47,942 nucleotides of DNA from Candidatus Roizmanbacteria bacterium RIFCSPHIGHO2_02_FULL_40_13b (GCA_001789445.1 MFZQ01000029.1:1-47942), one strand, 5' to 3'. Positions 2,281 to 41,727 are shown, numbered from the stretch's first letter. Notes: generated by a model not told the origin, from the sequence alone. Translations and numbers: made by a program.

Positions 2281-2304
2281 GATTCCCGCCTTCGCGGGAA
2301 TGAC
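2281..2304. repeat. GC-rich hairpin mini-element (GATTCCCGC-CTTC-GCGGGAATGAC)
   Basis: 8-bp stem ATTCCCGC/GCGGGAAT with loop CTTC. The 26 nt GATTCCCGCCTTCGCGGGAATGACAA (2281-2306) are identical to 41704-41729. It differs by one loop base from the reverse complement of 24195-24218. Confidence 0.8.
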
Positions 2305-2309
2305 AAATT

Positions 2310-3431
2310 ATGAAAATAGCCTTAGTCCATGATCAGTTGCAGGAATTCGGTGGTGCAGAACGGGTACTTGTGTCTCTGAAAAAGATTTTTCCAGAGGCGG
2401 ATGTGTATACCTCATTTTACAACCCAGAAAAACTGGGGAAGCATGCCGAACTCTTTAAAGATTGGAAGGTCATCACATCCTGGGCCGACAAAGTATATCC
2501 ATTCAAGCGATTTTTTTCGCCGTTTCGATTTATCACTCCCCTTTTGTGGAAATTTTTCAATTTCTCGAACTATGACTTGGTTATTTCCTCATCTGGTGCT
2601 TACATGTCAAAAGGCGTAAAAACGAGCGGAAAAACAGTGCATTTTTGTTATCTTCATCACCAGCCGAAATATCTCTACGGCTACGAAACACCCTCTAACT
2701 GGCAAAAACATTTGATTATCCGCATTTACGGAAACTTTATAAATCATTTTTTGCGTATGTATGATTTCAAAACATCGCAAACAGTAGATCACTTTATCGT
2801 CAACTCGCAGGAAATGCAAAGGCGATGTGAGAAGTTTTATAAGAGAGAGTCGACGGTTATCTACCCACCAGTCGCAATTCCTCAGGTTCTAGAGGACTCG
2901 AGAGTTAAGGCACTGGAGGGCTCGAGATATTATTTGACAATATCTAGATTAAGTGGGCCTAAGCATATTGATTTATTGGTAAAAGCTGCAAATAAAAAAA
3001 AGTTTTTGCTTAAAATTGGGGGAGTTGGGAGAGACGAAAATTATTTGCGGTCAATTGCAGGGGAAACAATAGAATTCCTTGGCTCAGTTGATGATCGTGA
3101 ATTTGAGAAGTTATTTGCAGGTGCCAAAGCATTTCTGCATGCTGCGGTTGATGACGAATTTGGGATTGCCCCCGTTGAGGCAATGGGATGGGGAGTCCCA
3201 GTGATCGCGCTCGCGTCTGGCGGACTGAAGGAGACAGTAAAAGAGGGAAAGAATGGATTTTTGTTTAATGAACTGCGCGAAGACTCACTTATCGGGGCAA
3301 TCGAAAAGCTCGAGAAGCTCACTGACGCTCAATATCTAGAAATGCGAAAAACAGCTCGAAACGAGGCGGAGAAATATAGTGAAGATGTTTTTAAAGAGAA
3401 AATTTTAGCTTTTGTAAAAACTTATTCTTGA
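2310..3431 (+). CDS. GT4-family (GT-B fold) glycosyltransferase
   Basis: 373 aa. The C-terminal block EFGIAPVEAMGWGVPVIALASGGLKETVKEGKNGFLF is the classic GT4 E-x7-E region. Confidence 0.85.
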   Translation: MKIALVHDQLQEFGGAERVLVSLKKIFPEADVYTSFYNPEKLGKHAELFKDWKVITSWADKVYPFKRFFSPFRFITPLLWKFFNFSNYDLVISSSGAYMSKGVKTSGKTVHFCYLHHQPKYLYGYETPSNWQKHLIIRIYGNFINHFLRMYDFKTSQTVDHFIVNSQEMQRRCEKFYKRESTVIYPPVAIPQVLEDSRVKALEGSRYYLTISRLSGPKHIDLLVKAANKKKFLLKIGGVGRDENYLRSIAGETIEFLGSVDDREFEKLFAGAKAFLHAAVDDEFGIAPVEAMGWGVPVIALASGGLKETVKEGKNGFLFNELREDSLIGAIEKLEKLTDAQYLEMRKTARNEAEKYSEDVFKEKILAFVKTYS

Positions 3432-3475
3432 AGTTCCTATTGACATTCTCAGGTGTAATTGTTTTAATAAATCAA

Positions 3476-4729
3476 ATGGATAGTAAAAAATCGCTACCTT
3501 CAATTTCAACGTTATTTCGGGATTCGTGGCAGATGTTTACGAAATCAATACTTTCTATTTTCCTCTTAAACATTCTCTCAATTTTGCTCTATCTAGCTGT
3601 TGGCGCAATATGTGTATTACTATTCGTTATTTCGGGCGCAGGAGCTACTTTATTTAAGACTGGAGCTTCAGGATTGCTCTCGTCGATTACTCCATCAGTA
3701 TTTTTTGGGTTTGGCGCAGTATTTGTACTGTTTTTTCTTGTAATGCTTGTTATTGGATCAGCGGTCAGTTCTGCCGCAATCCTGCTTTTTGACAGTGAAG
3801 GTAAACTATCGGTACTTGAAGCCTTTAGGAAAGGAATAACACTTATCATCCCACTTACTGCGGTCGGATTAATACACTTATTTCTAGGTATGGGAGGATT
3901 TTTTGTATTTGTTTTCCCCGGTATTATTATTTCATATTTACTTGCATTTTCCTCATTTGAAGTAATCCTTAATGGAAAACGTCCAATGGAGGCAATTAAA
4001 CGATCGGTTTCGATTGTTAGTCATAATTTTGGTGATATTTTTGTACGATGGTTTGTACTAATTCTTGTGTATTTCGGGATTGCGTTTGTACTACCTGGCT
4101 TGCTGGGGGCAATTAGCAAAGAACTCAAAATATATGTGACAGGTTTATCCTTTATTGTTAATATGTTTCTCGGTTGGTATATTCTTGCATTTAACGTAAC
4201 ACTCTATAAGCAATTCAAAGATTTGGCTCATTCAAAGGATGTAAAAAGCATTACTTGGATGTGGATTGTGGCGATTATAGGATGGATTATTGCGCTTCTC
4301 GTTTTTTTTGCAGGATGGAAGCTGATTACTTCACCTGCTTTCTTGGATGCATTTACGAAGAACGTAAAAACAAATAGTGCGCCCTATGCTTTTCCCACAA
4401 CCTCGCATACCCAAGTTCCTCTTCCAACAGCAGGGAGTTATCAGCCGGCGAGTTCAAACTGCACACAATATCCCATTCGAGAGGGAGAATTTACGAGTGA
4501 TAAGTGTTATAGCGCCAAAGATTACAGTGATTTACTCTATTATTTACAACGATATGATAGTGCTGCGTCCGTATACAATGGTGCTATTGCGTCAATGAAT
4601 ATTACCTGTAATGGAAGTGAATTCTTTAAAGATGCATGTGCGCGTGATACAACCGACAAAACAAATGCTGAAAATGATATTAATAACTACAAGGGAATAA
4701 TAACTGCAATTATTTCTCGAGGGAAGTAA
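3476..4729 (+). CDS. polytopic membrane protein with a Cys-containing extracytoplasmic C-terminal domain, function unknown
   Basis: The ORF-track start at 3428 is a TTG. ATG at 3476 is preceded by TTGACA (3440-3445), 17 nt, TTTAAT, then 7 nt. Multiple hydrophobic segments are followed by a soluble tail with 4 Cys. Confidence 0.6.
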   Translation: MDSKKSLPSISTLFRDSWQMFTKSILSIFLLNILSILLYLAVGAICVLLFVISGAGATLFKTGASGLLSSITPSVFFGFGAVFVLFFLVMLVIGSAVSSAAILLFDSEGKLSVLEAFRKGITLIIPLTAVGLIHLFLGMGGFFVFVFPGIIISYLLAFSSFEVILNGKRPMEAIKRSVSIVSHNFGDIFVRWFVLILVYFGIAFVLPGLLGAISKELKIYVTGLSFIVNMFLGWYILAFNVTLYKQFKDLAHSKDVKSITWMWIVAIIGWIIALLVFFAGWKLITSPAFLDAFTKNVKTNSAPYAFPTTSHTQVPLPTAGSYQPASSNCTQYPIREGEFTSDKCYSAKDYSDLLYYLQRYDSAASVYNGAIASMNITCNGSEFFKDACARDTTDKTNAENDINNYKGIITAIISRGK

Positions 4730-4809
4730 TACAGTTTAGACCCTTTTGTATCCTTTCTTTCTACATAATCTCACTTGAAATGACTATAACAATCTTTGTA
4801 CCCTTAATT

Positions 4810-4898
4810 AGTAGTTAGTAGGGAGTAGAAAGTAGTTAGGGGGTAAAACAGATAAGTTTGTATTCCTAGCTACTTCCTACTTTCTACTTTCTACTATT
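4810..4898. repeat. inverted pair of heptamer arrays: (AGTAGNN)x4 at 4810-4841 and (CTACTNN)x4 at 4865-4898
   Basis: Left arm AGTAGTT AGTAGGG AGTAGAA AGTAGTT AGGG. Right arm CCTAGCTACTTCCTACTTTCTACTTTCTACTATT is its imperfect reverse complement. It lies just upstream of the SD (AAGGGGGTG) of the 4918 gene. Confidence 0.7.
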
Positions 4899-4917
4899 CG
4901 AAAGGGGGTGATAATAA

Positions 4918-5259
4918 ATGAATACAAAACAAGTAGCTCTTTCTATTTTTTCAGGAGTAATGATGTTCAGTCCACTATTGGGCTCGGTTCACGCGTCAAC
5001 AGTAAATTGCAGTAGCAATACAACCACCGTTGTTTCATCATCGAGCACAAATGTGTTATTTGCGTCCCAAACAGTTATTTCTGGCAATAGCACTGGTGGA
5101 AATGGAACGTGGGGAAATATTGGTGGCGGCAGTATACGAACAGGCAGGGCTTGGTCAGTTTCAAACCAAAGTATCCGTGCAAACAACAATGACACCTTTA
5201 TCGGAGTAACCGGAGGTGGAACAAGAAACAATTGTGTCGTAGTAAATACGGGTAACTAA
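4918..5259 (+). CDS. small secreted Asn/Ser/Gly/Thr-rich protein, unknown function
   Basis: 113 aa. Signal-peptide-like N-terminus (ALSIFSGVMMFSPLLGSVHA/ST), a good SD GGGGGTG 7 nt upstream, and a hairpin terminator downstream. Confidence 0.6.
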   Translation: MNTKQVALSIFSGVMMFSPLLGSVHASTVNCSSNTTTVVSSSSTNVLFASQTVISGNSTGGNGTWGNIGGGSIRTGRAWSVSNQSIRANNNDTFIGVTGGGTRNNCVVVNTGN

Positions 5260-5281
5260 CAGTATTTTTACGTACTTATAT

Positions 5282-5310
5282 GGGGAGGCATACGTCTCCC
5301 CTTTTCTTTT
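5282..5310 (+). terminator. rho-independent terminator of the 4918 gene
   Basis: GGGGAGGC-ATAC-GTCTCCCC stem-loop (8 bp including one G-U pair) followed by TTTTCTTTT. Confidence 0.65.
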
Positions 5311-5785: not shown

Positions 5786-5806
5786 ACTTTTATTGTAGCA
5801 GAAAAA

Positions 5807-8695: not shown

Positions 8696-8750
8696 GAAAG
8701 GTATTATACAGAACTTCTTGCTATAATAAAGGGGTAAAGATTGTTGGAGT

Positions 8751-8822
8751 GGCCTGATGGTGAAGTGGAAACACGGAAGTCTGCAAAACTTCTATGCACC
8801 GGTTCGATTCCGGTTCAGGCCT
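8751..8822 (+). tRNA. tRNA-Cys (anticodon GCA)
   Basis: 72-nt cloverleaf: acceptor GGCCTGA/TCAGGCC, anticodon stem GAAGT/ACTTC with loop CTGCAAA, T arm ACCGG-TTCGATT-CCGGT, discriminator T as expected for tRNA-Cys. TGCTATAAT lies upstream. Confidence 0.9.
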
Positions 8823-8835
8823 CACAATTCTGCGC

Positions 8836-8863: not shown

Positions 8864-8869
8864 TCTTGT

Positions 8870-9631: not shown

Positions 9632-9633
9632 TT

Positions 9634-9648: not shown

Positions 9649-9654
9649 TTTGGG

Positions 9655-15863: not shown

Positions 15864-16605
15864 CGTATCACTAATCATTCCTTGTTTCAACGAGGAGGCA
15901 AATATTCAAAAAGGGGTACTTGATAAGATCGGGAATTACACACGACATCACGATGAATATTACGAAGTAATAATTGTTGACGATGGTTCTACAGATGATT
16001 CGGCCGTAATAATAAAAAATGAGTATCTTTCCGATTTTCCAAAATTTCGATTGATTGAGAATAAACATGCGGGGAAAGGGGAAGCGGTGATTGCTGGAAT
16101 TGAGGCGGCAAAAGGAGACGCTGTTCTTTTTGCGGACATTGATTTGGCGACCCCACTTGAGGAAGCGAGTAAACTTCTCGAGGAAACTAGAGACGAGTTC
16201 CCTATCGTTATTGGGTCCCGAAAGAGTGGGCGCATTGGCGCACCAATACTTCGAAAACTGCAATCTGCTGGATTTATTATCATTCGGGATATTTTCTTAG
16301 GTTTGGGTGGAATTAGAGATACCCAATGTGGCTTTAAGCTATTCAGGACAAAGGAAGCAATGGAGATTATCTCGAGGCTACAGGTTTTTGGGAAAAATTA
16401 TAAGGTGGAAGGCTCCTCTGTTTCTGCTGGATTTGACTTAGAATTTTTATTTATTGCACGAAAATTAGGATATGGCATAAAAGAGGTTCCCGTGCGCTGG
16501 AAACATGTAGAGACGAAGAATGTGAAGTTTATAAAAGATACCGTGGAGACACTTAAAGACTTGGCACAAATAAAATATTATTCGATCACGGGACGATATG
16601 ACTAA
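15853..16605 (+). CDS. GT2 polyprenyl-phosphate glycosyltransferase (DPM1/ALG5/ArnC-like)
   Basis: 250 aa: SLIIPCFNEE, VDDGSTDDS, FADIDLATP (DxD) and DTQCGFKLF. Confidence 0.9.
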   Translation: MQNNVSLIIPCFNEEANIQKGVLDKIGNYTRHHDEYYEVIIVDDGSTDDSAVIIKNEYLSDFPKFRLIENKHAGKGEAVIAGIEAAKGDAVLFADIDLATPLEEASKLLEETRDEFPIVIGSRKSGRIGAPILRKLQSAGFIIIRDIFLGLGGIRDTQCGFKLFRTKEAMEIISRLQVFGKNYKVEGSSVSAGFDLEFLFIARKLGYGIKEVPVRWKHVETKNVKFIKDTVETLKDLAQIKYYSITGRYD

Positions 16606-18043
16606 ATATTTACGCATCGTCTTCTTTTTTCTAGTATCTCTCTACCTTCTATCCTCCATTATCAACCTTCAAGGTTCATATTTATACGATTGGGATGAAG
16701 CGATTTATGCACAAGTCGGGAGGGAAATGGTGGCGAATAAGACGATTTTTGGGGTGTGGAATGGGGCACCGTGGCTTGAAAAGCCACCGCTTGTTCCTCT
16801 AATTTCTGGATTATTTATGAAGTTTCCATTAGGATCAACCGAGTTTTTGGCTCGTCTCCCCTCTTTTCTCGCAGGACTTGGAGTGCTATATCTACTCTTT
16901 AAGATTTTGAAAGAGAAGTTCAAGAAAGAGTATCTGAAGTATTTTACCATTACAACCACATTTCTCTTGCTTTCAGCTCCATTTATGAATAGGATGACTT
17001 CGTTAAATACAGACATCTTCCTCGTCTTCGGCTGGCTCGGATTTTATTATTACTACAAAAAGAGTTTCGTCGCCTCAACACTCTTTCTTTTCATAGCTGT
17101 CATGTCGAAATCTTTCCTCGGCTTTTTCCCAATTCTTGTAATTCTGATAGAATCTGTCATTCTTGAGCGAAGCGATAGAATCTCAACCGTCATCCTGAAT
17201 CGCCGGCTGGCAGTGAAGGATCTCGGTGTGGCTGTATTAATCAGTCTTACTTGGTTTTTTCTTGCTTTCCTCCGCTTCGGAAATCTTTTCCTCCAAGAAA
17301 ACCTTTATGACCATCTCGTCGCTCGGGTTGTAAAGCCTGTAGAGCTTCACTACGGCGGCTATCTCTTTTATCCAAAGCTCCTTTTTAGCTATTACAATAT
17401 TTTTCTCATACTGATAATAATCTCAATTGCCTATATTCTCTATTCACTCGTAGAGCGAAAGAGAAAGGAACTACTTTTTATTCCGCTCTTTTTAATGTAT
17501 GGAGCCATCATTTCGCTCGCCAAAACGAAGTTGAACTGGTATATTTTTCCAATTCTCCCATTCCTTGGGCTCTCATTCTCGATATTAATAATGGATTTCT
17601 TGAAGAAGTTTAAAATTAAAGATACTGTACTTTGGCTAGTATTATCAGTAATTTTCTTTGTTGGAGTCTTTGTAAGCGGAGGATTTACGCTTCGTTTGCA
17701 CAAGGAGAAGCCAACGGATCTGGTTTCACTTGCGCTTTACGCAAAAACAAAATGCAGAAGTACAGCGATCGTTGCAAATAATGATGAGCAGAAGTTTTTT
17801 GATGTTATTAACGCGGCAAATGTGCAGATTTCATCAACATTCCGCTATGGGGGATCCCCTTCATTTCGATTTTACGCTGACCAGCTAGTGCTTTATAAAT
17901 ACGATAAAACTCCAAATCGCGACATAGTTGATCACACTGATTGTGTAATTATTCCCCTAGACTCTCATTTCTTATTTAAATCTAAAGATTGGGAAGTAAG
18001 CACCCAAAAAGACGGATTCGTATTGTATAAGCAGATAAATTGA
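16598..18043 (+). CDS. GT39/ArnT-PMT-family GT-C glycosyltransferase
   Basis: 481 aa. First-loop signature YDWDEAIYAQVGREM...PWLEKPPL is typical of ArnT/PMT_2. Polytopic. Confidence 0.85.
   Translation: MTKYLRIVFFFLVSLYLLSSIINLQGSYLYDWDEAIYAQVGREMVANKTIFGVWNGAPWLEKPPLVPLISGLFMKFPLGSTEFLARLPSFLAGLGVLYLLFKILKEKFKKEYLKYFTITTTFLLLSAPFMNRMTSLNTDIFLVFGWLGFYYYYKKSFVASTLFLFIAVMSKSFLGFFPILVILIESVILERSDRISTVILNRRLAVKDLGVAVLISLTWFFLAFLRFGNLFLQENLYDHLVARVVKPVELHYGGYLFYPKLLFSYYNIFLILIIISIAYILYSLVERKRKELLFIPLFLMYGAIISLAKTKLNWYIFPILPFLGLSFSILIMDFLKKFKIKDTVLWLVLSVIFFVGVFVSGGFTLRLHKEKPTDLVSLALYAKTKCRSTAIVANNDEQKFFDVINAANVQISSTFRYGGSPSFRFYADQLVLYKYDKTPNRDIVDHTDCVIIPLDSHFLFKSKDWEVSTQKDGFVLYKQIN
17166..17232. 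repeat. two adjacent GTCAT...GATC hairpin mini-elements inside the CDS
   Basis: GTCATTCTTGAGCGAAGCGATAGAATC and GTCATCCTGAATCGCCGGCTGGCAGTGAAGGATC are translated as VILERSDRISTVILNRRLAVKDL. The trailing ATCTCGGTGTGG is shared with 33631-33642. Confidence 0.7.
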
Positions 18044-22681: not shown

Positions 22682-23590
22682 ATGTCCAACATAACCGCAA
22701 TCATCGTCGTCAAAGGAAATCCAGAACATCTAGGTGAGACGCTTGATTCGATAAAAACTTTCGCGGATGAGATACTAATCGGTGACATAGGAATCGATAA
22801 GAAAGTTCTGGACGAACTTCGTATCACTTCGATTATTCGAATAATCGAAGTAAAGCGGGAAGTTGCGTATGTTGAGCTTGTGCGAGATGAGTTGCAAAAA
22901 CAAGCAACACATGAATATGTTTTAGTTCTTGATCCGGATGAAATTGTTCCTCAAAAGCTCATCTTTGCATTAAGAAAGAGTATGGGCGAGTACGACTATG
23001 TAAAGATTCCTCGGAAAAATATTATTTTTGGAAAATGGATTCAACATTCTCGCTGGTGGCCCGATTATCAGGTGCGGTTTTTCAAAAAAGGCGCTGTTTC
23101 ATGGCCGAAAATTATTCATGCACAACCGGCAACTTCTGGTAAAGAACTGATTCTTGAGGCGAATGAGGAAATGGCGCTCATACATTACAACTACAAAGAC
23201 TTGAATGAGTATCTATCGAAGGCTTCTCGATATGCGGCGGCGGAAGCGGCAGAAGACATTGTGAAAGGGGAGCCGGCGACATTTAAGTTTTATAGCAAAA
23301 AGGCGCTCTCCGAGTTTGTGAGTAGGTATTTTGCCCATGACGGGTATAAGGATGGAATGCATGGATTCACCCTCGCATTTTTACAAATGATGTACTATTT
23401 CTTGGTATATTTTTATGTTTTGGAAGAGCGGAAATTTGAAAAAGTGTCGGATGAGAATATTTTGAAAGGTTTAATACAATTCTTTTCAAGTGCTTTATAT
23501 GAAACAACACATTGGAGTAAACAAAAAGGACTCGTAAAAATTTCATTACTTAAGTCAAAACTACAAAATGCAATTCATAAACTTTCATGA
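22682..23590 (+). CDS. GT2-family glycosyltransferase (paralog of 36173)
   Basis: 302 aa: ITAIIVVKGNPEHL..., LVLDPDE (DxD), WWPDYQVRFF, HYNYKDLNEYLSKASRYA. The same architecture is seen in 36173-36955. Confidence 0.8.
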   Translation: MSNITAIIVVKGNPEHLGETLDSIKTFADEILIGDIGIDKKVLDELRITSIIRIIEVKREVAYVELVRDELQKQATHEYVLVLDPDEIVPQKLIFALRKSMGEYDYVKIPRKNIIFGKWIQHSRWWPDYQVRFFKKGAVSWPKIIHAQPATSGKELILEANEEMALIHYNYKDLNEYLSKASRYAAAEAAEDIVKGEPATFKFYSKKALSEFVSRYFAHDGYKDGMHGFTLAFLQMMYYFLVYFYVLEERKFEKVSDENILKGLIQFFSSALYETTHWSKQKGLVKISLLKSKLQNAIHKLS

Positions 23591-25221
23591 TAAAAAGTAT
23601 CAAAGAATATATTAATTCAAATAAATATCTTTGTGTAGCGGCTGTTATTTTTCTTCTGGTTCGTGTTCTCTTTCTTGATCAACTTTTTTTACTCCATGAT
23701 GAACGTGATATTGTTTTTTCTGGATATTCGATTGCAAAAACGGCACAAGATTTATTTGGAAATTTTCTACCGATAAATTTTTCCGGAATAAGTCCCGATA
23801 ATCCACTTGTTTCAATTTATTATTCTGCCGCTTCATGGATTCTTCTTCCTATTAGATCAGTATTTTTCGCACGAATCCCGTTTGTCCTGATTTCGACACT
23901 ACTCATCTTTTTGGTATATGAAATTATTCTCCAAATCTCGCGCGACAAAAGACTCGCGCTTGTTTCGAGTCTCGTTTTTGTCTTTTCGCCGTGGGTTTTT
24001 CATGTTACACGTCTGGCACTTGACCTTCCACTTGCTGCAGTCACCCTTTTTTCTGGATTACTTTTATTTCTAAAAAATAAGAGATGGCTCGCATATTTCA
24101 TGTTCTTCCTCACCTTTTACAATTACCAAGGATTTAGGGTTTTGATTCCATTCTTAATTATTTATCTCGAAATAATCTGTCATACGATCCCATTGTCATT
24201 CCCGCGGAGGCGGGAATCCAGAATTATAGTAAGTCTTCTCTTCGTCCTCTTCCTTTTCCTCTCAATCACCTTCATCGACAAATCAGTCACAACCAAACGA
24301 TTCTCACAAGTTGCTTTTTTGGCCCCAGAACGTTTCACGCAAGAAGTGAATTTGCGCAGATCTTCCTCAAACGCTCCACTACGTATTCAAGCAATTTTTC
24401 ATAATAAAATTTCAGTTACAGCAGATTATGTAGTGGATAACTTTATCAAGGGTCAAGATATTTCTTACTTATTTAAAACTGGAGATTTTAGCCCAATAAA
24501 TGGAAACGCAGTTGGCGGACAATTCTTTTTCGGATTTCTTCTCTTCTATTATCTGGGAATAATGGCGCTCGGAAAGAGATTACAGAAAGAAGATTTTTAT
24601 ATCCTGGGGTTCATTATTCTTGGTCTGCTTCCGGCAATGGCATCGGTGAATAGTGCAACATATTCAATCAGAGGATTTTTATCAGCACTAGGATATGCAT
24701 ATTTACTGTCCCTCGGAATTCTTTTTGGAATTGATATTTTGAAACGATTTTCATCCAAGCAAAGAACTTTCATACTAGTAAGTCTTCTCTTAGTTTTCAT
24801 TATTAACTCGACCTATTTTATCTACAATTACTATGTAAGAAGACCAGTAACTGTCGGCGAGCTTTTCAATGAAAATGAACGCCGACTGGCCACATATCTC
24901 ATTGATAATCCAGATAAAACATATACGATCTATCACAATAATCCGAAAGAGATTTATCTTTCATACCTATTTTTAAATAACAATTTAGCAATTTCACAAT
25001 TTAACAATTTATCCAGCAATTTAACAATTTATCAATTTAACAATTTCACCTTCATAAAGTGTCCTCGATTAATTGATTACCGTACTCTTCACGGAGTAAT
25101 CGTTTCGGAAACATGTATGGATTTGAAGTCACATGATCAGTTAAACAATTCTGTGCTGATGATCAAAAAGATTCCATACAAAGATATTTCTCTCAAGACC
25201 GCATATTTTATTTTTGAATAA
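23587..25221 (+). CDS. GT-C-like polytopic membrane glycosyltransferase
   Basis: 544 aa. LHDERDIVFSGYSIAKT first-loop motif, polytopic. ATGA start/stop overlap with the upstream GT2. Confidence 0.7.
   Translation: MIKSIKEYINSNKYLCVAAVIFLLVRVLFLDQLFLLHDERDIVFSGYSIAKTAQDLFGNFLPINFSGISPDNPLVSIYYSAASWILLPIRSVFFARIPFVLISTLLIFLVYEIILQISRDKRLALVSSLVFVFSPWVFHVTRLALDLPLAAVTLFSGLLLFLKNKRWLAYFMFFLTFYNYQGFRVLIPFLIIYLEIICHTIPLSFPRRRESRIIVSLLFVLFLFLSITFIDKSVTTKRFSQVAFLAPERFTQEVNLRRSSSNAPLRIQAIFHNKISVTADYVVDNFIKGQDISYLFKTGDFSPINGNAVGGQFFFGFLLFYYLGIMALGKRLQKEDFYILGFIILGLLPAMASVNSATYSIRGFLSALGYAYLLSLGILFGIDILKRFSSKQRTFILVSLLLVFIINSTYFIYNYYVRRPVTVGELFNENERRLATYLIDNPDKTYTIYHNNPKEIYLSYLFLNNNLAISQFNNLSSNLTIYQFNNFTFIKCPRLIDYRTLHGVIVSETCMDLKSHDQLNNSVLMIKKIPYKDISLKTAYFIFE
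24195..24218. repeat. GC-rich hairpin mini-element in CDS
   Basis: GTCATTCCCGCGGAGGCGGGAATC, translated as SFPRRRES. It is the reverse complement of the 2281 and 41704 element with one loop change. Confidence 0.8.
24981..25048. repeat. tandem array of eight 8-nt units CAATTTNN (4 units, CCAG, 4 units) inside the CDS
   Basis: CAATTTAG CAATTTCA CAATTTAA CAATTTAT CCAG CAATTTAA CAATTTAT CAATTTAA CAATTTCA, translated as NNLAISQFNNLSSNLTIYQFNNF. Confidence 0.85.
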
Positions 25222-25373: not shown

Positions 25374-25388
25374 GAGGGAAATGAAAGA

Positions 25389-29054: not shown

Positions 29055-30741
29055 CTTTATAAAGTCTCACTTCATTATTCTCATAAATTATTTTCAAATT
29101 TCCTTTACACTTTTCAAGTTTGTTACCAATTGGTCTGGAATATAACTCATATAAGTAATCTACGTCCAAAATGGTATCACAATTCCAATCTAAACTCTTC
29201 TTGGCCCGAGCCTCATAATCTACTCCCGTAAGCTGTAGCTGTACTTCATCGCCGATGTAGAGTTGTTTTCCCGAAAAAGCAGTAATATATGCGTTGTCGG
29301 CCATTGCCGACAGGGGAACTGGTGTAGCTTGCTGTTTGTTGCTTTCATTTGGAAGTGGAGTGAATACTACTCCAGCTGGCTGCTTTTTGAGAAATCTTAG
29401 AGCATAGAGTTCATCATCTGAGACAAATGAGTGGGCAGGGAACTGGGCAAAAGTTCGTAAAATATCAAGTGATGATGGAAGGCTCATAAGTATCACAATG
29501 GCAACAATCACAATTCCTGCTTTCTTAAACTTTTTCATGATCTCGTAAAGTGTAAGTGCAGTAAAAATATTCATCAAGAAAAATGCGTGATAGCTAAATT
29601 GCACTGTATTCCACCATTGGCCTTTTTGGATGAAGAAAATATTGAGAAACATAGCGAAAATAATCGTAGTAGTTAGTAGTTGGTAGTTAGTAGTTAGGGT
29701 TCTTTTGAATACATGTTTACCAATATACAAGATTCCGATAATTCTCGTGCCGAAGTTGAGAAGTATGAAGATGAAAAGAGTTTGTATCTCAATCCAAACC
29801 AACCGTGGACTAAATTTAGGGGATGCTTCCAGAAAGTAGCGAGCGTTTACCATATCTTTCAGATAAAAAAGATTAGGGTCTTCGATAATTTGATGAACCG
29901 TTGCAAATGGTTTAAATGTCATAATTGCTCCACCGGTTGTTGGGGCAAATGGATTATAAAAAAGGAGAACTGCCCCAATAGAAAATATGGAAAGTAAGCT
30001 CAACTGTTTTGTAAATAATACGATATCTCTTTTTTGTAGCAATAAAAACAAAAAGTAAAGACTAACGAGAAAAATACTAATTACTCCTCCATAAAATTTG
30101 AGTGCAATGTTTAGACCAACAAGTAAGGCTAAAAGTGTGCTTGATCGTACATCGGTCCTTTTTTCCTTAATAATAATAAGAATTCCAAGTAAAACGCAGA
30201 GTGAGAATGCAAACTGGACGTTTGTTAAAGAAAGTAATGATTGCATCGCAAGTAATTCTCCAGATCCCCAGATTGTACGATTTTTTATCAAGGTTATGAT
30301 GTATGAGAATGAGCCTGAAAAATACATGAAAAAGAGAAGTAATCCAACAAATAGAGGAGAATCATGAAGTTTTCGGGCAAACTTTACTAGCAATCCAGTA
30401 AATAAGATAAACCAAATGATAGGCAAGATCTTAAAGTAGGTTATGATCGATGGAATACCGACTTTTGTAAGTAAAAAAATGATGATATCGAGAAAAAAAT
30501 TGTATCCAGAAAGCTGGGCTCCCGCAAATGTAGGGGCGATGAATGGAAAGGATTTGAATGCGGTGGAGACAATTGCCAGGTGCCAAATTGCATCGTGTCC
30601 ATGTGCTCCCCAAAAAAATAATCCACAAGGGCCTTTAGTACAATAATGGCTTCCACTCGGAAATATTGTAATCATGTATGCGACAAATGCGACCAAGATG
30701 AGAATCAAAAGCATCGTGTGCTTTTTGATATAATCGATCAT
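29026..30741 (-). CDS. polytopic membrane protein (GT-C-like or O-antigen-polymerase-like; uncertain)
   Basis: The ORF-track start at 30822 is TTG; the first in-frame ATG is at 30741 (MIDYIKKHTMLLILILVAF). It has more than 12 TM segments and an early loop WGAHGHDAIWHLA. Confidence 0.6.
   Translation of the reverse strand: MIDYIKKHTMLLILILVAFVAYMITIFPSGSHYCTKGPCGLFFWGAHGHDAIWHLAIVSTAFKSFPFIAPTFAGAQLSGYNFFLDIIIFLLTKVGIPSIITYFKILPIIWFILFTGLLVKFARKLHDSPLFVGLLLFFMYFSGSFSYIITLIKNRTIWGSGELLAMQSLLSLTNVQFAFSLCVLLGILIIIKEKRTDVRSSTLLALLVGLNIALKFYGGVISIFLVSLYFLFLLLQKRDIVLFTKQLSLLSIFSIGAVLLFYNPFAPTTGGAIMTFKPFATVHQIIEDPNLFYLKDMVNARYFLEASPKFSPRLVWIEIQTLFIFILLNFGTRIIGILYIGKHVFKRTLTTNYQLLTTTIIFAMFLNIFFIQKGQWWNTVQFSYHAFFLMNIFTALTLYEIMKKFKKAGIVIVAIVILMSLPSSLDILRTFAQFPAHSFVSDDELYALRFLKKQPAGVVFTPLPNESNKQQATPVPLSAMADNAYITAFSGKQLYIGDEVQLQLTGVDYEARAKKSLDWNCDTILDVDYLYELYSRPIGNKLEKCKGNLKIIYENNEVRLYKANQARLLSH
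29666..29699. repeat. (AGTAGTT)x4 heptamer array inside the CDS
   Basis: AGTAGTT AGTAGTT GGTAGTT AGTAGTT AGGG matches the left arm at 4810-4841. On the minus strand it is translated as LTTNYQLLTTT. Confidence 0.75.
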
Positions 30742-31593
30742 ATGAAGGATTTGGCAATCATAACGGTTATTTATAAGAATTATACGGTACTTGATGGGTA
30801 TCTGGAAAGCATTGATAAACAAAAAGATACGAACTTCAAACTTTTCATCGTTGATCTAACAGAGGAACCACAAGATCTCGAACAAGTATTAAGCCGTCAT
30901 CCCGAACTCGTTTCGGGATCTCCAGTACTTCTTCATTCTCAAAATAAAGGTTATGCGCACGGCATAAACGTTGGACTTATTCAGGCGCAAAAAGAAGGAT
31001 ATGAACGTTTTTGCGTTATGAATACTGATACGTTTTTCGAGTCAAACTTTGTCTCCTCAATACAAGATTTTATCAATGAGCATCCAGGAGCAATTGGAGG
31101 AGGAAAAATATATTATGCGTCTGGATATGAATACCATAAAGGTCGGTACGAAAAAGATCAACTTGGAAAAGTTATTTGGTTCGCAGGTGGAGAAATTGAC
31201 TGGAAAAATGTGTTTACAAAACATGTAGGCGTTGATGAGATCGACAATGGTCAATTCGATTCTGAAAAAGCGGTAGACTTTTTGACTGGCTGTTGTATGT
31301 TTTTTGACAAATCCGTTTTTGAAAAAGTGGGAATGTTTGACGAGTCATACTTTCTCTATTATGAAGATGCTGATTGGTGTGTGCGAGCAACAAAAGGTGG
31401 AGTTAAACTTATTTACGACCCAAAAGTTGTCTTGTGGCACAAAAATGCACAGTCAACTGATGGCGCAGGCTCCTCTATACATATAAAATATCAAGAAAAA
31501 AATCGGGTCAAATTTGGATTAAAGTATGCACCGCTACGAGCAAAACTGCATTTATTGAAGAATCTTTTTACATCTCCCCATCAGGAACGATAA
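30742..31593 (+). CDS. GT2-family glycosyltransferase (WbbL/rhamnosyltransferase-like)
   Basis: I prefer the start at ATG 30742, with TGATATAAT 7 nt upstream. Motifs: AIITVIYKNY, NKGYAHGINVG, NTDTFF, GCCMFFDKSVFEKVGMFDESYFLYYEDADWC. Confidence 0.85.
   Translation: MKDLAIITVIYKNYTVLDGYLESIDKQKDTNFKLFIVDLTEEPQDLEQVLSRHPELVSGSPVLLHSQNKGYAHGINVGLIQAQKEGYERFCVMNTDTFFESNFVSSIQDFINEHPGAIGGGKIYYASGYEYHKGRYEKDQLGKVIWFAGGEIDWKNVFTKHVGVDEIDNGQFDSEKAVDFLTGCCMFFDKSVFEKVGMFDESYFLYYEDADWCVRATKGGVKLIYDPKVVLWHKNAQSTDGAGSSIHIKYQEKNRVKFGLKYAPLRAKLHLLKNLFTSPHQER
30896..30920. repeat. hairpin mini-element in CDS (GTC-ATCCCGAA-CTCGT-TTCGGGAT-C)
   Basis: 8-bp stem, translated as RHPELVSGS. It is flanked by the imperfect direct repeats CAAGTATT and CCAGTACT, 39 nt apart. 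It is related to 36457-36481 by a compensatory stem change. Confidence 0.8.
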
Positions 31594-33198: not shown

Positions 33199-33200
33199 AT

Positions 33201-34673
33201 TTATCTTGTAACAATAACAAAAGAATTATTCTTTGCAACTATTTTAAACGGAATTTTTTCGCTTACTAAATTATTAATCGCCCATACTCTTGTTATTACA
33301 GCGAAATCCTTTTGGTTTGATTTGAAAAAGTCGACCAATGTATGATTGATTCCAAAAATTCCATACAGTTCAAGTTCCCGAATTGTAAAAATTTTCTTGT
33401 CTGCATAATATACTGCCATTGGCAAAAAATCATCATCCAAGAATATTTGTTTATCTACTTTACGAGCATCTATTGAAATCGCCACATCATCCGCAACATA
33501 TTTATTCACGGGAATAACTTCTTTGTAAAAAGATTTTATTTGAAGTGCGGCCACTAAAACAAAACAGATAAGAAATAAACTCATTATTGTCATTGCGAGC
33601 GAAGTCCTGTTTATTGGAATGAAGTCGAGGAATCTCGGTGTGGAAGAAATTAGGCTTTGAAATCCATACGCAATGATTAACGAAATTGGTAAATATACCG
33701 GAATCAAGTGCCAAATTTGTGTTTGATCTGTTGTAAGAAAGGGATATAAGACGAGAAGATTCCAGATAAGCAGAAATGCAACCTCTTTTTTTAAAAAATC
33801 TCGTTTAACAAAAATAATTCCCACTGCGCCGATCCATAAGTAGTACCATTTTCTAATTCCCATATGCAAATAAAAGAGTGGTTGCGTAGCATGTAAGTTG
33901 AAGTAAGAGAGCAATGTTTTATTTCGTGTTCCAATATCTACAAAATGGTGTTGATAAAAATTTTGGTATGTCAAGAAATGCACAAGGTACCAAGGGAAGA
34001 TAATTACTATGGCAAGCACGAATCCATATATCACATACTTCAAATATTTTCTTCCCGACTTTTGCATCAGTATTGGGATATGGTTAGAGTTTGCGAGAAA
34101 TACGAGTAAGAGTGCAGATCCTCCAACAAGTGTTTTAGTTAAGAAGAGGAGTGCGAAACTTGCCATTGTTGGTATAAACCATTTTATATTTTCTCGAGCC
34201 TTGAGAGCAAAATAGATCGTTAAGATGTAAAAAAACACAAATGTTGAATCCAAGTTTCCCGATCTAACTCGCAAAACATACCACACACACGTTCCCATAA
34301 CAAGCGCGGCCACAAATCCAATACTTTTTTTCCCAAAAAGTTTCACTCCGGTAAGATAGACTAAAGCAATTGTTCCAATTCCACACAGAACACTTGGAAG
34401 TCGGGTTGAAAATTCACTAATCCCAAAAAGCTTGTAAGAAATAGCCATGAGCCAAAATCCTGCTGGTGGGTGGTCAAAATAGGGAAGTGAATTAAAATGC
34501 ATTCGCAAATAATCTCCACTACGAACCATTTCCCGAGCAATTACTCCGTACCATGCTTCATCCCAACTGCCAAGCGTGCTATAATCTAAGCGGAAGAGGA
34601 ATAAAATACTAAAAAAGGAGAGTATTCCATAAAATCCCATATTATCTAAAACATGAGTATAAAAAGACTTCAT
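33201..34673 (-). CDS. ArnT/PMT-family (GT39/GT83-like) GT-C glycosyltransferase
   Basis: GSWDEAWYGVIAREMVRSGDYL...YFDHPPAGFW...EFSTRLPS is the classic ArnT first-loop signature. The start is uncertain: the ORF-track start at 34775 is TTG, and ATG candidates lie at 34673 and 34640. Confidence 0.85.
   Translation of the reverse strand: MKSFYTHVLDNMGFYGILSFFSILFLFRLDYSTLGSWDEAWYGVIAREMVRSGDYLRMHFNSLPYFDHPPAGFWLMAISYKLFGISEFSTRLPSVLCGIGTIALVYLTGVKLFGKKSIGFVAALVMGTCVWYVLRVRSGNLDSTFVFFYILTIYFALKARENIKWFIPTMASFALLFLTKTLVGGSALLLVFLANSNHIPILMQKSGRKYLKYVIYGFVLAIVIIFPWYLVHFLTYQNFYQHHFVDIGTRNKTLLSYFNLHATQPLFYLHMGIRKWYYLWIGAVGIIFVKRDFLKKEVAFLLIWNLLVLYPFLTTDQTQIWHLIPVYLPISLIIAYGFQSLISSTPRFLDFIPINRTSLAMTIMSLFLICFVLVAALQIKSFYKEVIPVNKYVADDVAISIDARKVDKQIFLDDDFLPMAVYYADKKIFTIRELELYGIFGINHTLVDFFKSNQKDFAVITRVWAINNLVSEKIPFKIVAKNNSFVIVTR
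33589..33636. repeat. GTCATTGCGAGCGAAG... hairpin-family element in CDS
   Basis: GTCATTGCGAGCGAAGTCCTGTTTATTGGAATGAAGTCGAGGAATCTC. The minus strand is translated as RFLDFIPINRTSLAMT. It shares the tail ATCTCGGTGTGG with 17231-17242. Confidence 0.6.
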
Positions 34674-36188
34674 AATTGGAAAATCCCCGCAATTTTTGCT
34701 TTTGTTTTCATCCTTTTCGTTTATTTTAGAGTAAAGCCAATATATTATCAAACGGTTCCATATACATATGATCAAGGACGGGATTTTTTAAAGGCAGAAG
34801 AAATTGTTCGTTTTCACAATCCTACATTTATAGGTCCAACAACAGGAATTCAAGGAGTTAACCATGGGGTATGGTGGTACTACTTCCTTGCAATGCAATA
34901 TTTCATCTTTAATGGGAATCCGAGTGGATTTTATTACGGAGTACTCGCAATGATGTTTATTTCAACACTTCTTTTCACGATCTTTCTCAAAAAAGAGTTT
35001 GGAAATCACATTGCACTCCTTTTTTTACTCATCGTTACCATTTCTCCCTATTTTATTGGTATCTCATTCTTTGCGGCAAACAATATTCTGGCTCCGCCAT
35101 TTGTATTACTTTTTATCTTTAGCATCTACAAATTTTTACAAATCTCAACAAGTTTCAACAAGTCTCCATTAATCTCAATGAGTCTCTACAAATATCTTTT
35201 TCTCATAGGATTATCTCTTGGATTTATTTTTGAAGCTGAAATGCCACTTGGGCTTTTTATTATTCCTTCTTTCTTCGTAGCCTCGATACTCTTCAAAGAA
35301 GTAAGATCCTCTTTCAGGAAACTCAACAATCTTTTTTTCTTGATTCTTGGACTAGTTTTACCTTTTACCTTCCGAATACTTTTTGAAATAAAACATAACT
35401 TTATCCAAACAAAAAGCATTATTTATTTTTTTAAACATCCATCTGCTACAAATGCACAAGGATTGGATGGTATTTTGCGGGAGCGAGCGTTACTTTTTTT
35501 AAGCTATTTTCAAGAAATATTTTATGACAACAATAAAATTATCGTTTTTGGAGCGATTCTCGTTTTAGGAGGCATATTTATTTGTGGATATAAACGATTT
35601 GAAAAACTGCATAGGAGACTCTTTCTATTTTTCTCTTCAATGATTTTATTTATTTTCCTTTTTTCGCTAAGTTATCGAAATAATTTCTTTTGGGATTATT
35701 ACTTGGAAGGAATTCACTATATCTTCCTTTTTTACATACTGCTTCTTTTCTATATATCGACAATTATTGATACTAAGAAAAGATTACTTACTGTGATACT
35801 TGTTCTGTTTTCAATTCTTGCAATCTTTTATTTAGGAAAAGAACTTACGAAACAAAATAATACTCCATATATTGGATTACGAGCAGATATAAAAACTGTG
35901 GAAACAGTTTATTCACTTGTTGGAAAAAATGACTTTTGTGCGCGTATTTATACCCCACCGGTAGTGCCATATACATATAATTATCTTTTTCACTACAAAT
36001 CCTTACAAGGCTATAAAGTGCCACTCGAAAATCCAATGAATACTATGTGTATCATTATTATCGATTCTGATCAGTATACATTTAGAATTGATGAGTGGAG
36101 GAAGACTAACATTCCAGTAGACTTTATACTTGAGAAAAAAATTGTACTGCCAAATAATGTTAGAGTTGAAGTATGGAAACAAAAATAA
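34653..36188 (+). CDS. GT-C-like polytopic membrane glycosyltransferase (paralog of 14394)
   Basis: 511 aa, with the YDQGRDFLKAEEIV loop. TATTAT lies 7 nt upstream of the ATG. Confidence 0.7.
   Translation: MSIKRLHNWKIPAIFAFVFILFVYFRVKPIYYQTVPYTYDQGRDFLKAEEIVRFHNPTFIGPTTGIQGVNHGVWWYYFLAMQYFIFNGNPSGFYYGVLAMMFISTLLFTIFLKKEFGNHIALLFLLIVTISPYFIGISFFAANNILAPPFVLLFIFSIYKFLQISTSFNKSPLISMSLYKYLFLIGLSLGFIFEAEMPLGLFIIPSFFVASILFKEVRSSFRKLNNLFFLILGLVLPFTFRILFEIKHNFIQTKSIIYFFKHPSATNAQGLDGILRERALLFLSYFQEIFYDNNKIIVFGAILVLGGIFICGYKRFEKLHRRLFLFFSSMILFIFLFSLSYRNNFFWDYYLEGIHYIFLFYILLLFYISTIIDTKKRLLTVILVLFSILAIFYLGKELTKQNNTPYIGLRADIKTVETVYSLVGKNDFCARIYTPPVVPYTYNYLFHYKSLQGYKVPLENPMNTMCIIIIDSDQYTFRIDEWRKTNIPVDFILEKKIVLPNNVRVEVWKQK
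35126..35193. repeat. 52-nt GAGTCTC-family insert bounded by the 8-nt direct repeat CTACAAAT (exactly 60 nt apart)
   Basis: CTACAAAT-TTTTACAAATCTCAACAAGTTTCAACAAGTCTCCATTAATCTCAATGAGTCT-CTACAAAT. AAGTTTCAAC(A/G)AGTCTCCAT is shared with 39961-39980. Confidence 0.7.
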
Positions 36189-36955
36189 CGGTATTAATTC
36201 ATACATATAATGAAGCAAACGAGATTGTTGAATGTATCGAAAGTGCTAAACTTCTTACAGATATAATTGTACTTGTTGACATGGAAAGCACAGATGATAC
36301 AGTTGAAATTGCAAAAAAAGAAGGTGCTGATGTTTACTCTTTTCCATTCAGTCGATATGTTGAACCGGCACGGAATTTTGGGATTGAGAAAATAAAAACA
36401 GAGTGGGTATTTCTACTTGATGCTGATGAACGAATGACTGGGGAATTAGCTGAGGAGATCCTGAAACGAGTTCAGGATGACGAGAGAGCAGAGACTCACT
36501 TCAAACTCCATCGCAAAAACATTTTTGCTGGGAAAAAGTGGTTGAAATATGGTGGCTGGAACTCAACATCAGATTATCAGACGCGACTCATAAAAAAAAG
36601 TGTATTTGTAAACTGGCCAAAAGCTATCCACTCAACCCCGGAAATTAATGGGGAAGCCGGCTTTTTAAAAGAACCACTCCTTCACTATTTTCATAAAGAT
36701 TTAGAGACGATGGTTACAAAAACAACCGTGTATGAAGACATTGAATCTGATTTACTATTTCAAGCTCATAAACCCGTTTCAACAAGTATATTTTTTAGAA
36801 AATTTTTAGGCGAACTCTACCGACGATTATTTAAATGGCAAGGATTTCGGGACGGAACACTTGGAGTTATAGAATCTATTTATCAGGCATATTCAAAAAC
36901 AACCACCTATTTATTTTTATATGAAAAAAATCATGAAAAAACTTCTCATAGTTGA
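36173..36955 (+). CDS. GT2-family glycosyltransferase (paralog of 22682)
   Basis: 260 aa: ITVLIHTYNEANEI, VDMESTDDT, LLDADE, HYFHKDLETMVTKTTVY. Confidence 0.85.
   Translation: METKITVLIHTYNEANEIVECIESAKLLTDIIVLVDMESTDDTVEIAKKEGADVYSFPFSRYVEPARNFGIEKIKTEWVFLLDADERMTGELAEEILKRVQDDERAETHFKLHRKNIFAGKKWLKYGGWNSTSDYQTRLIKKSVFVNWPKAIHSTPEINGEAGFLKEPLLHYFHKDLETMVTKTTVYEDIESDLLFQAHKPVSTSIFFRKFLGELYRRLFKWQGFRDGTLGVIESIYQAYSKTTTYLFLYEKNHEKTSHS
36457..36481. repeat. hairpin mini-element in CDS (reverse orientation)
   Basis: GATCCTGAAACGAGTTCAGGATGAC is the reverse complement of GTCATCCTGAACTCGTTTCAGGATC. It is translated as EILKRVQDD. Confidence 0.8.
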
Positions 36956-38000: not shown

Positions 38001-38002
38001 CA
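37983..38002. repeat. CAATTTAA-type repeat spanning a CDS end, the stop codon and the 2-nt gap to the next ATG
   Basis: AGCAATTTAACAATTTAACA is followed directly by the ATG at 38003. Confidence 0.7.
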
Positions 38003-40437: not shown

Positions 40438-40438
40438 G

Positions 40439-40933
40439 TTATGAAGAATTTTTTCCGACAAAGGGTAGGGGGAATTTTGAGGAAAGATATTTCTTATAAA
40501 GTACAAGGTCGTCGCCATGATCAAATGCCATTTCTTCTTTTGGTGGAACTTGATCAAATGCAAACCATTCAAGTTTTCTAACTTCTTCGTTTCCTTCAGT
40601 AAAATCATCTGATGTTTGAACAATAAATACAAACTCAATATTTTGCCTATCCTCATGTGGTCGATCTGGATTATCTTTAATATGAAATAAAGTAAAACTC
40701 GTAGCATCGCATCCTGTCTCCTCTTTTATTTCTCGTTTTAATGCCTCTTCTAAATTTTCATCTCGTTCAACAAATCCACCAATTAAGCCCCACTTTCCAT
40801 ATTCGAGCATTGGATTTCCGTTATAAGTTCCACGTTTTCCAAGAAGCACTTTATTATCTTTTACTAAAATAGCATTTATCGTAACATGGCGTTTCCTTCC
40901 TATTCCTCCATCCTCAAATGTGCATGTAATCAT
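40439..40933 (-). CDS. NUDIX hydrolase
   Basis: The Nudix box GGFVERDENLEEALKREIKEETG is present. Confidence 0.85.
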   Translation of the reverse strand: MITCTFEDGGIGRKRHVTINAILVKDNKVLLGKRGTYNGNPMLEYGKWGLIGGFVERDENLEEALKREIKEETGCDATSFTLFHIKDNPDRPHEDRQNIEFVFIVQTSDDFTEGNEEVRKLEWFAFDQVPPKEEMAFDHGDDLVLYKKYLSSKFPLPFVGKNSS

Positions 40934-40936
40934 GCG

Positions 40937-41599
40937 TTAAATATACAGAATTATCGATAGGTTATACAGTGCATGTATTAGTATTGGGGATACTAGACTT
41001 CTTCGATTCAAAAATATAAAACTGTTAATCATACTCAAAATGAAATCGGTTGCCAAGAACCATATGAGCACATTTCCACTCAATTTAAGATTTGTTAAAA
41101 GAATTGGAATATGCAAAATGAGAAAGAGTACGCTTGCTAGAAATGAAGACGTAAACGCATTTCCAGATTCCTCATAAAGTCGTTTTAAAACAAAACCGCG
41201 AGAAACAACTTCCTCGCAAAACCCTGTAACTAATGCAATTGTGATGGCAACTAGCAATGTTTGTGGGTTTTGAGTCAGGAGTGTTTGGGAGAATGAAAAT
41301 GTACTATATTTAATGTAGTTTGCCATGAGGGCCGAAAGGCTAAAAGTCGCACCGATGAAAAATGCTATATAGATATTCTTGAATATATTTTCTGTGGTAA
41401 GCCATACACTAGCTGCAAACTCTTTTTTCTCATTGTGTTTTATGAAAATATATACGGGGAGTAAGAAGACGAGGGGTTTTGCAACCAATTCATCGATGAT
41501 CTCGGGCAACATGAATTTAGCACGATACACGCTCCAAATAATGAGAATGATCGCCCACACGTTGAGCATTGATTGGGTTTTGGAAACAGGTTTTTTCAT
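40937..41599 (-). CDS. CPBP-family intramembrane glutamic endopeptidase (CAAX protease/Abi)
   Basis: EEVVSRGF (EExxxR) and the later HALYN motif, polytopic. The ORF-track start at 41629 is TTG; the first ATG is at 41599. Confidence 0.8.
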   Translation of the reverse strand: MKKPVSKTQSMLNVWAIILIIWSVYRAKFMLPEIIDELVAKPLVFLLPVYIFIKHNEKKEFAASVWLTTENIFKNIYIAFFIGATFSLSALMANYIKYSTFSFSQTLLTQNPQTLLVAITIALVTGFCEEVVSRGFVLKRLYEESGNAFTSSFLASVLFLILHIPILLTNLKLSGNVLIWFLATDFILSMINSFIFLNRRSLVSPILIHALYNLSIILYI

Positions 41600-41667
41600 C
41601 TCATTCAATAGTAAGCTGGCAGAGCACAAAAATCAAGGGGAACTGTGGGCTCGTTGATGAGTGTCTT

Positions 41668-41727
41668 GTCATCCTCGACCCCGATCGGGGATCCATTTCA
41701 ATAGATTCCCGCCTTCGCGGGAATGAC
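41668..41727. repeat. two adjacent hairpin mini-elements (intergenic)
   Basis: GTCATCCTCGACCCCGATCGGGGATCC contains the 12-nt palindrome CCCCGATCGGGG. GATTCCCGCCTTCGCGGGAATGAC is identical to 2281-2304. Confidence 0.8.

Follow-up and report, generated by a model that had tools for sequence, protein, structure and literature searches.

Palindromic elements residing in frame within genes of Rickettsia (Rickettsia palindromic elements; RPEs) were reportedly described by Ogata et al. in 2000. Here, we analyze a family of short hairpin repeats, each with GTC at its 5′ end and C at its 3′ end, in a 47,942-nt contig of Candidatus Roizmanbacteria bacterium RIFCSPHIGHO2_02_FULL_40_13b (MFZQ01000029.1; hereafter, the window), which is contig C29 of assembly G000 (GCA_001789445.1), a genome from a groundwater bacterium of the candidate phyla radiation (CPR). 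The closest described repeats are the CGTC-tagged repetitive extragenic palindromes (REPs), in which the tag often reads TGTC and is followed by stems of 8 to 9 bp starting with AT, loops of 4 to 5 nt, and a CCA tail; they occur mostly as inverted dimers, and their superfamily takes in dRS3 of Neisseria as well as RPE-4 and RPE-6 of Rickettsia (Di Nocera 2013; PMC3733652). SsnA, a 94-amino-acid (aa) GIY-YIG nuclease, binds single-stranded DNA (ssDNA) carrying NTS (CGTCATTCCCGCGMAVGCGGGAATCYRG), which is dRS3 in oriented form, and cuts a few nucleotides upstream of NTS; GTC is important for the cut, and the 3′ C is important for the binding step (PMC11893778). Homologues of ssnA in many phyla carry flanking Ssn-related motifs in an insertion sequence-like NTS-ssnA-NTS layout; in Neisseria, NTS and SsnA modulate transformation, and NTS cluster near surface-protein genes, with just 2% of the NTS of N. 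meningitidis being intragenic (PMC11893778).

By sequence criteria, the GTC hairpins of G000 are CGTC/TGTC-tagged REPs, now called Ssn-related motifs (SRM; Chenal 2025), since their anatomy fits the CGTC-1/2 description and the published SRM pattern is enriched ∼40-fold. A scan of the whole assembly (857,712 bp in 32 contigs, 90% complete) unveiled a unit made of a 5′ (T/C)GTC tag, a stem starting with AT, a loop of 4 to 6 nt or a nested insert, the complementary stem, a 3′ C, and a CYA tail. It recovered ∼170 family copies, far above chance expectation and all with GTC immediately 5′ and C immediately 3′ of the palindrome. The SRM pattern HGTCWYN(0-2)YYVSBRHN(0-5)WNVSBRGN(0-2)RNCYNB, which the window copies at 2281 and 41704 satisfy, matched 46 times, vs a mean of 1.2 in 30 dinucleotide shuffles (maximum of 4 matches in any shuffle). 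Similarly, hairpins of the form GTC-AT..AT-C with stems of at least 7 bp numbered 109 vs 2.3 in dinucleotide shuffles, and a reversed control pattern gave 0 matches across 41 genomes of the order. The proposal of one dispersed hairpin family, made earlier from the window alone (the sequence-only reading), is thus borne out. We place at roughly 0.75 the probability that these repeats belong to a known cross-phylum family of oriented hairpins partnered with Ssn, a single-domain GIY-YIG nuclease of ∼95 aa. In G000, the family is unusually intragenic.

Resemblance to NTS is close. The most abundant repeat (type A; see below) matches the NTS core letter for letter (GTCATTCCCGCG-NNNG-CGGGAATCC), the tag is likewise oriented (GTC 5′ and C 3′), the same hairpin-ssn-inverted hairpin cassette is found, and hundreds of copies are tied to membrane and surface-related genes. 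However, G000 is a CPR bacterium with a 0.86-Mb genome in which five or more stem subfamilies accompany three Ssn paralogues, and its intragenic share is 25% vs the 2% of N. meningitidis. With CGTC-1 and CGTC-2 (PMC3733652), the G000 repeats share the (C/T)GTC tag, 8-bp stems starting with AT, loops of 4 or 5 nt, a CCA/CTA tail, an arrangement mostly in inverted dimers that are often heterodimers, and the placement of some copies within genes, tRNA synthetase genes included. They differ in that the five phyla reported in that study exclude CPR/Patescibacteria, nested-GC long-loop variants are common in G000, and the intragenic share is higher. The repeat family, its partner nuclease, and in-frame residence in genes (as in Rickettsia RPEs and the REPs that Di Nocera 2013 reported inside genes) have already been published. 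A literature search found no paper describing SRM/CGTC repeats in CPR bacteria; the host lineage, the one-quarter intragenic share, the enrichment in GT2 glycosyltransferase genes, the coexisting paralogue-hairpin pairs, and the reuse of the same loops by different subfamilies are new.

Stem sequence distinguishes the subfamilies of G000: type A (ATTCCCGC, loop GRAG; ∼57 copies), type B (ATCCCCGA; ∼33 copies), types C, D, and E (ATCCCGAA, ATCCTGAA, and ATGCTGAA, loop CTYGT; together ∼31 copies), and types F (ATTCT...AGAAT) and G (ATCCT...AGGAT), the last two having long loops, frequently with a GC hairpin nested inside. The copies with 8-bp stems comprise 47 distinct sequences. Most copies (124 of 170) sit in pairs or clusters, with 47 pairs heads-outward (GTC outermost), 10 heads-inward, and 12 in tandem. 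The commonest arrangement, a heads-outward pair usually with a 10-nt spacer and typically an A+B heterodimer of ∼60 nt, has the geometry of an ssn cassette minus the gene. The window provides an example at 41668..41727, between Rce1-like and GT2-GtrA genes, where a B-type copy (41668-41693, plus strand, one G.T pair) and an A-type copy (41704-41727, minus strand) flank the 10-nt spacer CATTTCAATA.

The assembly encodes ten small GIY-YIG open reading frames (ORFs) besides UvrC, and three of these are Ssn-type, that is, single-domain GIY-YIG proteins (PF01541, 59 to 61 bits) of 96 to 97 aa counted from the ATG just past the upstream hairpin. Two of the genes (C21:34265-34552 and C10:15834-16121) are 92% identical, start directly after the upstream hairpin, and are bracketed on both sides by inverted A-type hairpins; the third (C14:101573-101848), 48% identical to them, is bracketed on both sides by F/G-type hairpins. 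Bracketing was also found in 9 of 10 related genomes with an Ssn-type gene, each by its own stem type, and brackets of the C/E type, as at window positions 30896 and 36457, surround ssn in G040 and in Roizmanbacteria RIFCSPLOWO2_01_FULL_37_12. A wider set of 80 homologous loci spanned many phyla, among them Acidobacteriota, Planctomycetota, Proteobacteria (including a Rickettsia endosymbiont), Bacteroidota, Chloroflexota, and several CPR groups; hairpins flanked both sides of the gene at 40 loci and one side at 23. The G000 proteins share 50 to 70% identity with hairpin-bracketed homologues in Acidobacteriota, Planctomycetota, Proteobacteria (including the Rickettsia endosymbiont), and Bacteroidota. 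Because the closest homologues (62 to 70% identity; among loci L096 to L175) come from Terriglobia, Kapaibacterium, Pirellulales, and Proteobacteria metagenome-assembled genomes, whereas those of same-order relatives are merely 46 to 56% identical, the comparison suggests that the cassette moved horizontally across phyla. In searches of reference collections, the NCBIfam matches of these proteins were sub-threshold intron-endonuclease models, NCBIfam having no Ssn model, and the PDB returned just a distant UPF0213 GIY-YIG structure (1zg2).

Across the 41 genomes, hairpin abundance goes along with the nuclease. An Ssn-type gene was found in all 10 genomes with at least 10 hairpin-pattern matches vs 5 of the 31 others (Fisher p = 2.7e-6), and the hairpin count correlated with the Ssn-type gene (Spearman rho = 0.71).

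Two further features of the cassettes were noted. Two or three tandem partial units of 19 to 21 nt (head, half stem, and spacer) precede the full hairpin beside ssn, for example, at C21:34200-34261 and 34555-34620 in G000 and at 1788-1854 of locus L090, with GTCATTCCGCGGACAATTT occurring twice; they may have been left behind by repeated rounds of cutting and repair. In addition, both A-type cassettes (C10:15834-17044 and C21:32378-34552) lie within 2 kb of a GT2 gene.

The window holds nine recognizable GTC-hairpin-C copies, a density (0.19/kb) no higher than the genome mean (0.23/kb); a window-specific enrichment is therefore unsupported. Every copy listed in the sequence-only reading is present, although the pair that it placed at 17166-17232 lies at 17156-17182 and 17189-17222, a 10-nt offset. 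Its sequence comparisons also held: the 2281 and 41704 copies are identical over 26 nt, and the 24195 copy differs from them in the loop alone. The A-type hairpin at 2281-2304 (minus strand, GTCATTCCCGCGAAGGCGGGAATC) is intergenic, downstream of bacA and upstream of a GT4 gene whose start is 5 nt away. The orthologous sites of the congeners G001 and G003 are empty, and comparison with them shows a clean insertion of 27 nt (2281..2307, TTTGTCATTCCCGCGAAGGCGGGAATC) with no target duplication. Reciprocally, hairpins of G001 or G003 occupy sites that are empty in the window; the family has thus kept inserting, in a lineage-specific manner, since these species split. The imperfect direct repeats CAAGTATT and CCAGTACT that had been noted as bounding the 30896 copy are due to chance, with no family-wide excess of flanking direct repeats around the copies and none at the 2281 empty site. 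On the same grounds, the family does not qualify as a miniature inverted-repeat transposable element (terminal inverted repeats plus target-site duplication).

The remaining copies of the window lie within genes. The C-type copy at 30896..30920 (plus strand, GTCATCCCGAACTCGTTTCGGGATC) is read in frame as RHPELVSGS, residues 84 to 92 of the product of the GT2 gene 30646-31593, and it adds 8 to 9 residues in a loop, since orthologues from other genera are shorter by 7 to 10 residues between VDL(T/S) and NKGYA. At the same site, G003 carries an identical 26-nt element in opposite orientation that encodes GSRNEFGMT, G002 a decayed copy, and G001 an unrelated hairpin. In the AlphaFold model of this GT2 (pLDDT 87), residues 84 to 92 connect strands 65-70 and 94-97 (β2-β3) with locally lower confidence, and the peptide is thus predicted to lie in a surface connection. 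The first 32 residues of the same 315-aa ORF (window 30646-30741 region) were modeled at a pLDDT of about 50; the protein probably starts at Met33 (MKDLAIITV), where the orthologues and a 283-aa database version begin. The D-type copy at 36457..36481 (minus strand, GTCATCCTGAACTCGTTTCAGGATC) is in frame as EILKRVQDD in the GT2 gene 36173-36955 and yields a net gain of 2 residues relative to orthologues, G003 having a longer variant and a further insert at the site. As the sequence-only reading had it, the 30896 and 36457 copies are one compensated stem pair apart (C to T with G to A), with the stem kept.

Two membrane protein genes and a PMT_2 gene host the other copies. The ORF 16598-18043 (481-aa membrane protein) contains, both on the plus strand, an F-type copy with a 5-bp outer stem (17156..17182, GTCATTCTTGAGCGAAGCGATAGAATC; in frame as VILERSDRI) and a G-type copy with a nested GC hairpin (17189..17222, GTCATCCTGAATCGCCGGCTGGCAGTGAAGGATC; in frame as VILNRRLAVKDL). 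These hairpins are absent from congeners, whose conserved native loop is only 3 to 6 residues shorter; the two repeats have replaced native sequence. The A-type copy at 24195..24218 (plus strand) is in frame as SFPRRRES in an inter-helix loop of a 544-aa DUF2079-like membrane protein (ORF 23587-25221). Just upstream of it, 24179..24192 (plus strand, GTCATACGATCCCA) reads as a putative collapsed remnant that retains head and tail but no stem. The PMT_2 gene 33201-34775 (minus strand) carries a decayed copy at 33589..33636 (plus strand) encoding PRFLDFIPINRTSLAMT. Its head (GTCATTGCGAGCGAAG) and tail (GAAGTCGAGGAATCTC) are recognizable, each as a 15/16 match to the subfamily that brackets ssn in G015 and G010, with one stem mismatch; there is no net length gain, and the sequence of congeners at this place is unrelated and about as long or longer. 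Of the five intragenic sites in the earlier reading, three (17156/17189, 33589, and 36457) are not plain additions, in that the repeat replaces a native loop with a net gain of ∼0 to 6 residues or less. The four 8-bp copies of the window fold as DNA hairpins (z about -3.2 to -3.6), and no significant fold was obtained for the 17156/17189 pair (z -0.2) or the 33589 copy (z -1.0).

A recurrent outcome of these comparisons is that, from one sister species to another, the same protein loops differ in the subfamily or orientation of the hairpin that they hold. In the 24195 loop, each of the four congeners has a hairpin of its own, and three of these run in the opposite orientation to the window copy. 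This loop also varies between strains. L095, a contig from a different metagenome sample, shows no differences from the window over ∼2.5 kb (flanks of ∼1.3 kb and 1.1 kb) except in a ∼180-nt tract corresponding to window 24114-24291, in which an AT-rich (CAATTTAA)n repeat stands where the 24195 hairpin would be and the tract flanks differ densely at synonymous sites. Judging from this single case, it looks like a short imported recombination tract centered on the repeat. L095 diverges completely past window position 25378, just beyond a terminator-like hairpin. As a separate observation, two loops that hold GTC hairpins in other species (in L017, the G001 orthologue of the GT2 gene, and at about 2400-2460 of G001:C8) contain another kind of small hairpin in G001, TTACGAGC-TCCGGGG-GCTCGTAA; it is possibly a second repeat family.

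Genome-wide, 43 of the 170 copies (25%) reside in frame within 25 ORFs that are intact and supported by orthologues, intragenic being defined as inside a long ORF and flanked by 30 or more codons in either direction. GT2 glycosyltransferases are overrepresented among the hosts, with 6 of the 18 GT2 genes carrying copies, compared with some 19 among the remaining ∼850 genes (p about 4e-6, the gene total being an estimate). Other hosts in glycosylation are a PMT_2 mannosyltransferase and a Wzy_C O-antigen ligase with four copies. Concentration in glycosylation genes, as inferred earlier from the window, thus extends to the genome, but housekeeping genes are hosts as well: LeuRS, a class Ib (Trp/Tyr) tRNA synthetase, ArgRS, GatB, and MiaA (three copies) in translation and tRNA metabolism, together with a class I/II aminotransferase, an M24 peptidase, and a reverse transcriptase. 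The A-type repeat leaves five of its six reading frames open, and the remaining one has a TGA from ATGAC. Cluster variants of the GatB, MiaA, and GT2 proteins showed point changes alone, with no presence/absence polymorphism of the hairpin. The earlier comparison with RPEs turned out to be literally right, in that RPE-4 and RPE-6 are CGTC-tagged REPs (PMC3733652). In both systems, palindromes lie in frame within functional genes of a small-genome bacterium at positions tolerated by the fold. The relatedness in sequence applies to RPE-4/6 alone, through that classification; classic RPE-1 is 100 to 150 bp long and unrelated in sequence, whereas the G000 units measure 24 to 60 bp and are enriched in glycosyltransferase genes.

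Two hosts carry several copies each. The four copies of the Wzy_C (O-antigen ligase-like) ORF (439 aa, C3:65388-66707) are all in opposite orientation to the gene and in a single frame; three encode (R/G)SRN(E/K)FGMT, and the fourth is a different variant, RFFSLDFARDQND. The reverse-transcriptase gene (RVT_1, C3:39424-40518) has two in-frame hairpins within the reverse-transcriptase domain.

Stem compensation, read earlier from one pair of copies, was found throughout the family. Among copies gathered by sequence similarity alone (at most 4 substitutions from the subfamily consensus), 19 two-sided changes at stem positions were all compensated, none of the double changes broke pairing, and 25 changes were one-sided breaks; the compensated changes correspond to ∼7 independent events. 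This pattern supports a constraint that would act on the structure of the stems. However, hairpin-internal templated repair of the DNA palindrome could yield the same compensation without selection.

We propose that Ssn would break or nick DNA at hairpins extruded in ssDNA, and that repair would then copy a unit from another locus or recombination would swap units. Selection would remove the intragenic copies that break frame or fold, so that in-frame copies in tolerant loops remain. The variable loops of glycosyltransferases and membrane proteins would be the most tolerant sites, which would explain the enrichment there.

Several observations weigh against a partnership of the hairpins with Ssn as the basis of their spread. 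The 41 genomes are not phylogenetically independent, and two relatives with Ssn-type genes have zero pattern matches. No cognate ssn gene was found in the 90%-complete assembly for the C/D/E subfamily, whose 31 copies include those at 30896 and 36457. Hairpin orientation showed no bias with respect to local GC skew (a proxy for replication direction) in any subfamily, though a strictly lagging-strand ssDNA mechanism might predict one. Hairpin counts also correlate weakly with the copy number of Y1_Tnp genes (rho = 0.47). To our knowledge, GIY-YIG nucleases have no joining activity and no transposase chemistry, and the nuclease alone cannot account for integration.

Besides acting as selfish DNA, Ssn and its hairpins might tentatively be viewed as a localized diversification device of Patescibacteria. 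Placed in loops of membrane proteins and of proteins for surface glycosylation, the hairpins would designate sites of ssDNA nicking during replication or natural transformation, and the nicks would provoke short-patch gene conversion through which strains exchange loop cassettes. The ∼180-nt mosaic tract at 24195 and the four hairpins found in that one loop fit this idea, which we consider an outside chance. As a corollary, Ssn itself would copy the hairpins, which would amount to nuclease-driven transposition without a transposase.

Also improbable, in our judgment, is that the hairpins are functional elements selected by the host, such as terminators, mRNA stabilizers, or sites controlling recombination or transformation, and that the intragenic copies are incidental. 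The GC-rich stable stems, the many intergenic copies, the influence of NTS and SsnA on Neisseria transformation together with NTS clustering near surface-protein genes (PMC11893778), and the recombination tract centered on the 24195 hairpin would all be compatible with such roles. Nevertheless, copy number ranges from 2 to 87 among congeners, a single loop can hold differing subfamilies and orientations, and the copies show no preference for either strand of their host genes (24 in the same orientation, 19 opposite). Moreover, copies lie within essential enzymes where a regulatory role is not evident, and the ssn cassette has the layout of a mobile element, with its closest homologues in other phyla.

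Mobilization as REP/REPIN elements by a RAYT-type Y1 (HUH) tyrosine transposase is a still less probable explanation. In REP/REPIN-RAYT systems, too, the hairpin repeats are short, form inverted doublets, and flank the gene of their enzyme, and G000 has four candidate Y1_Tnp-like ORFs (221 to 234 aa) with weak matches to NCBIfam REP_Tyr_transpos (44 and 33 bits vs a cut-off of 80); the weak correlation with Y1 copy number would also accord with it. Yet the tag is GTC rather than GTAG, the enzyme bracketed by hairpins is a GIY-YIG nuclease rather than an HUH transposase, and no GTC hairpin occurs within 400 nt of the four Y1 genes. Nor do the two covary: Y1 genes are present in 33 of the 41 genomes, many with zero hairpins (presence/absence Fisher p = 0.65), and G039 has 37 hairpins and no Y1 gene. 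A dedicated transposase for CGTC REPs was not found by Di Nocera 2013 (PMC3733652) either. RAYT partnership is thus rejected, given Y1 genes without flanking hairpins and the lack of presence/absence covariation. One RAYT-like gene (C22:6489-7154) adjoins a GT2 gene.

Finally, the notion that conserved protein motifs or chance palindromes, rather than inserted DNA, account for the matches inside genes is barely credible: the 33589 segment and the 17156/17189 pair do add few or no residues relative to congeners and fold no better than shuffles, but the peptides are absent from distant orthologues, identical nucleotide units lie between genes, an inverted element in a congener yields an unrelated peptide, the shuffles give ∼2 hairpins vs the 109 observed, and for the 8-bp copies the shorter orthologues, the inverted congener copy, and the clean empty site refute it.

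With Ssn-partnered hairpins as the preferred reading, the Ssn/SRM system now extends to ultrasmall CPR bacteria, and a streamlined genome can accommodate one quarter of the repeats within genes that are essential or surface-related. When CPR proteins are annotated, peptides that stem from the repeats, e.g., VIPAKAGI, SFPRKRES, EILKRVQDD, and RSRNEFGMT, should be anticipated. The Ssn paralogues that coexist here, every one paired with a hairpin subfamily of its own, would be candidate enzyme-site pairs for ssDNA tools, and loop reuse plus the strain-level mosaic offers a concrete place to ask whether the repeats promote local recombination.

Two minor observations complete the analysis. An Rfam search of the window returned only four ordinary tRNA genes (RF00005; 359-850 and 8751-8822), and the hairpins matched no known RNA family. 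Elsewhere in the assembly, a perfect 32-nt palindrome with GTCAT heads at both ends (GTCATGAAGTGATCTTTGATCTACTTCATGAC, C31:5282-5313) is located directly upstream of a GIY-YIG gene of a type other than Ssn.

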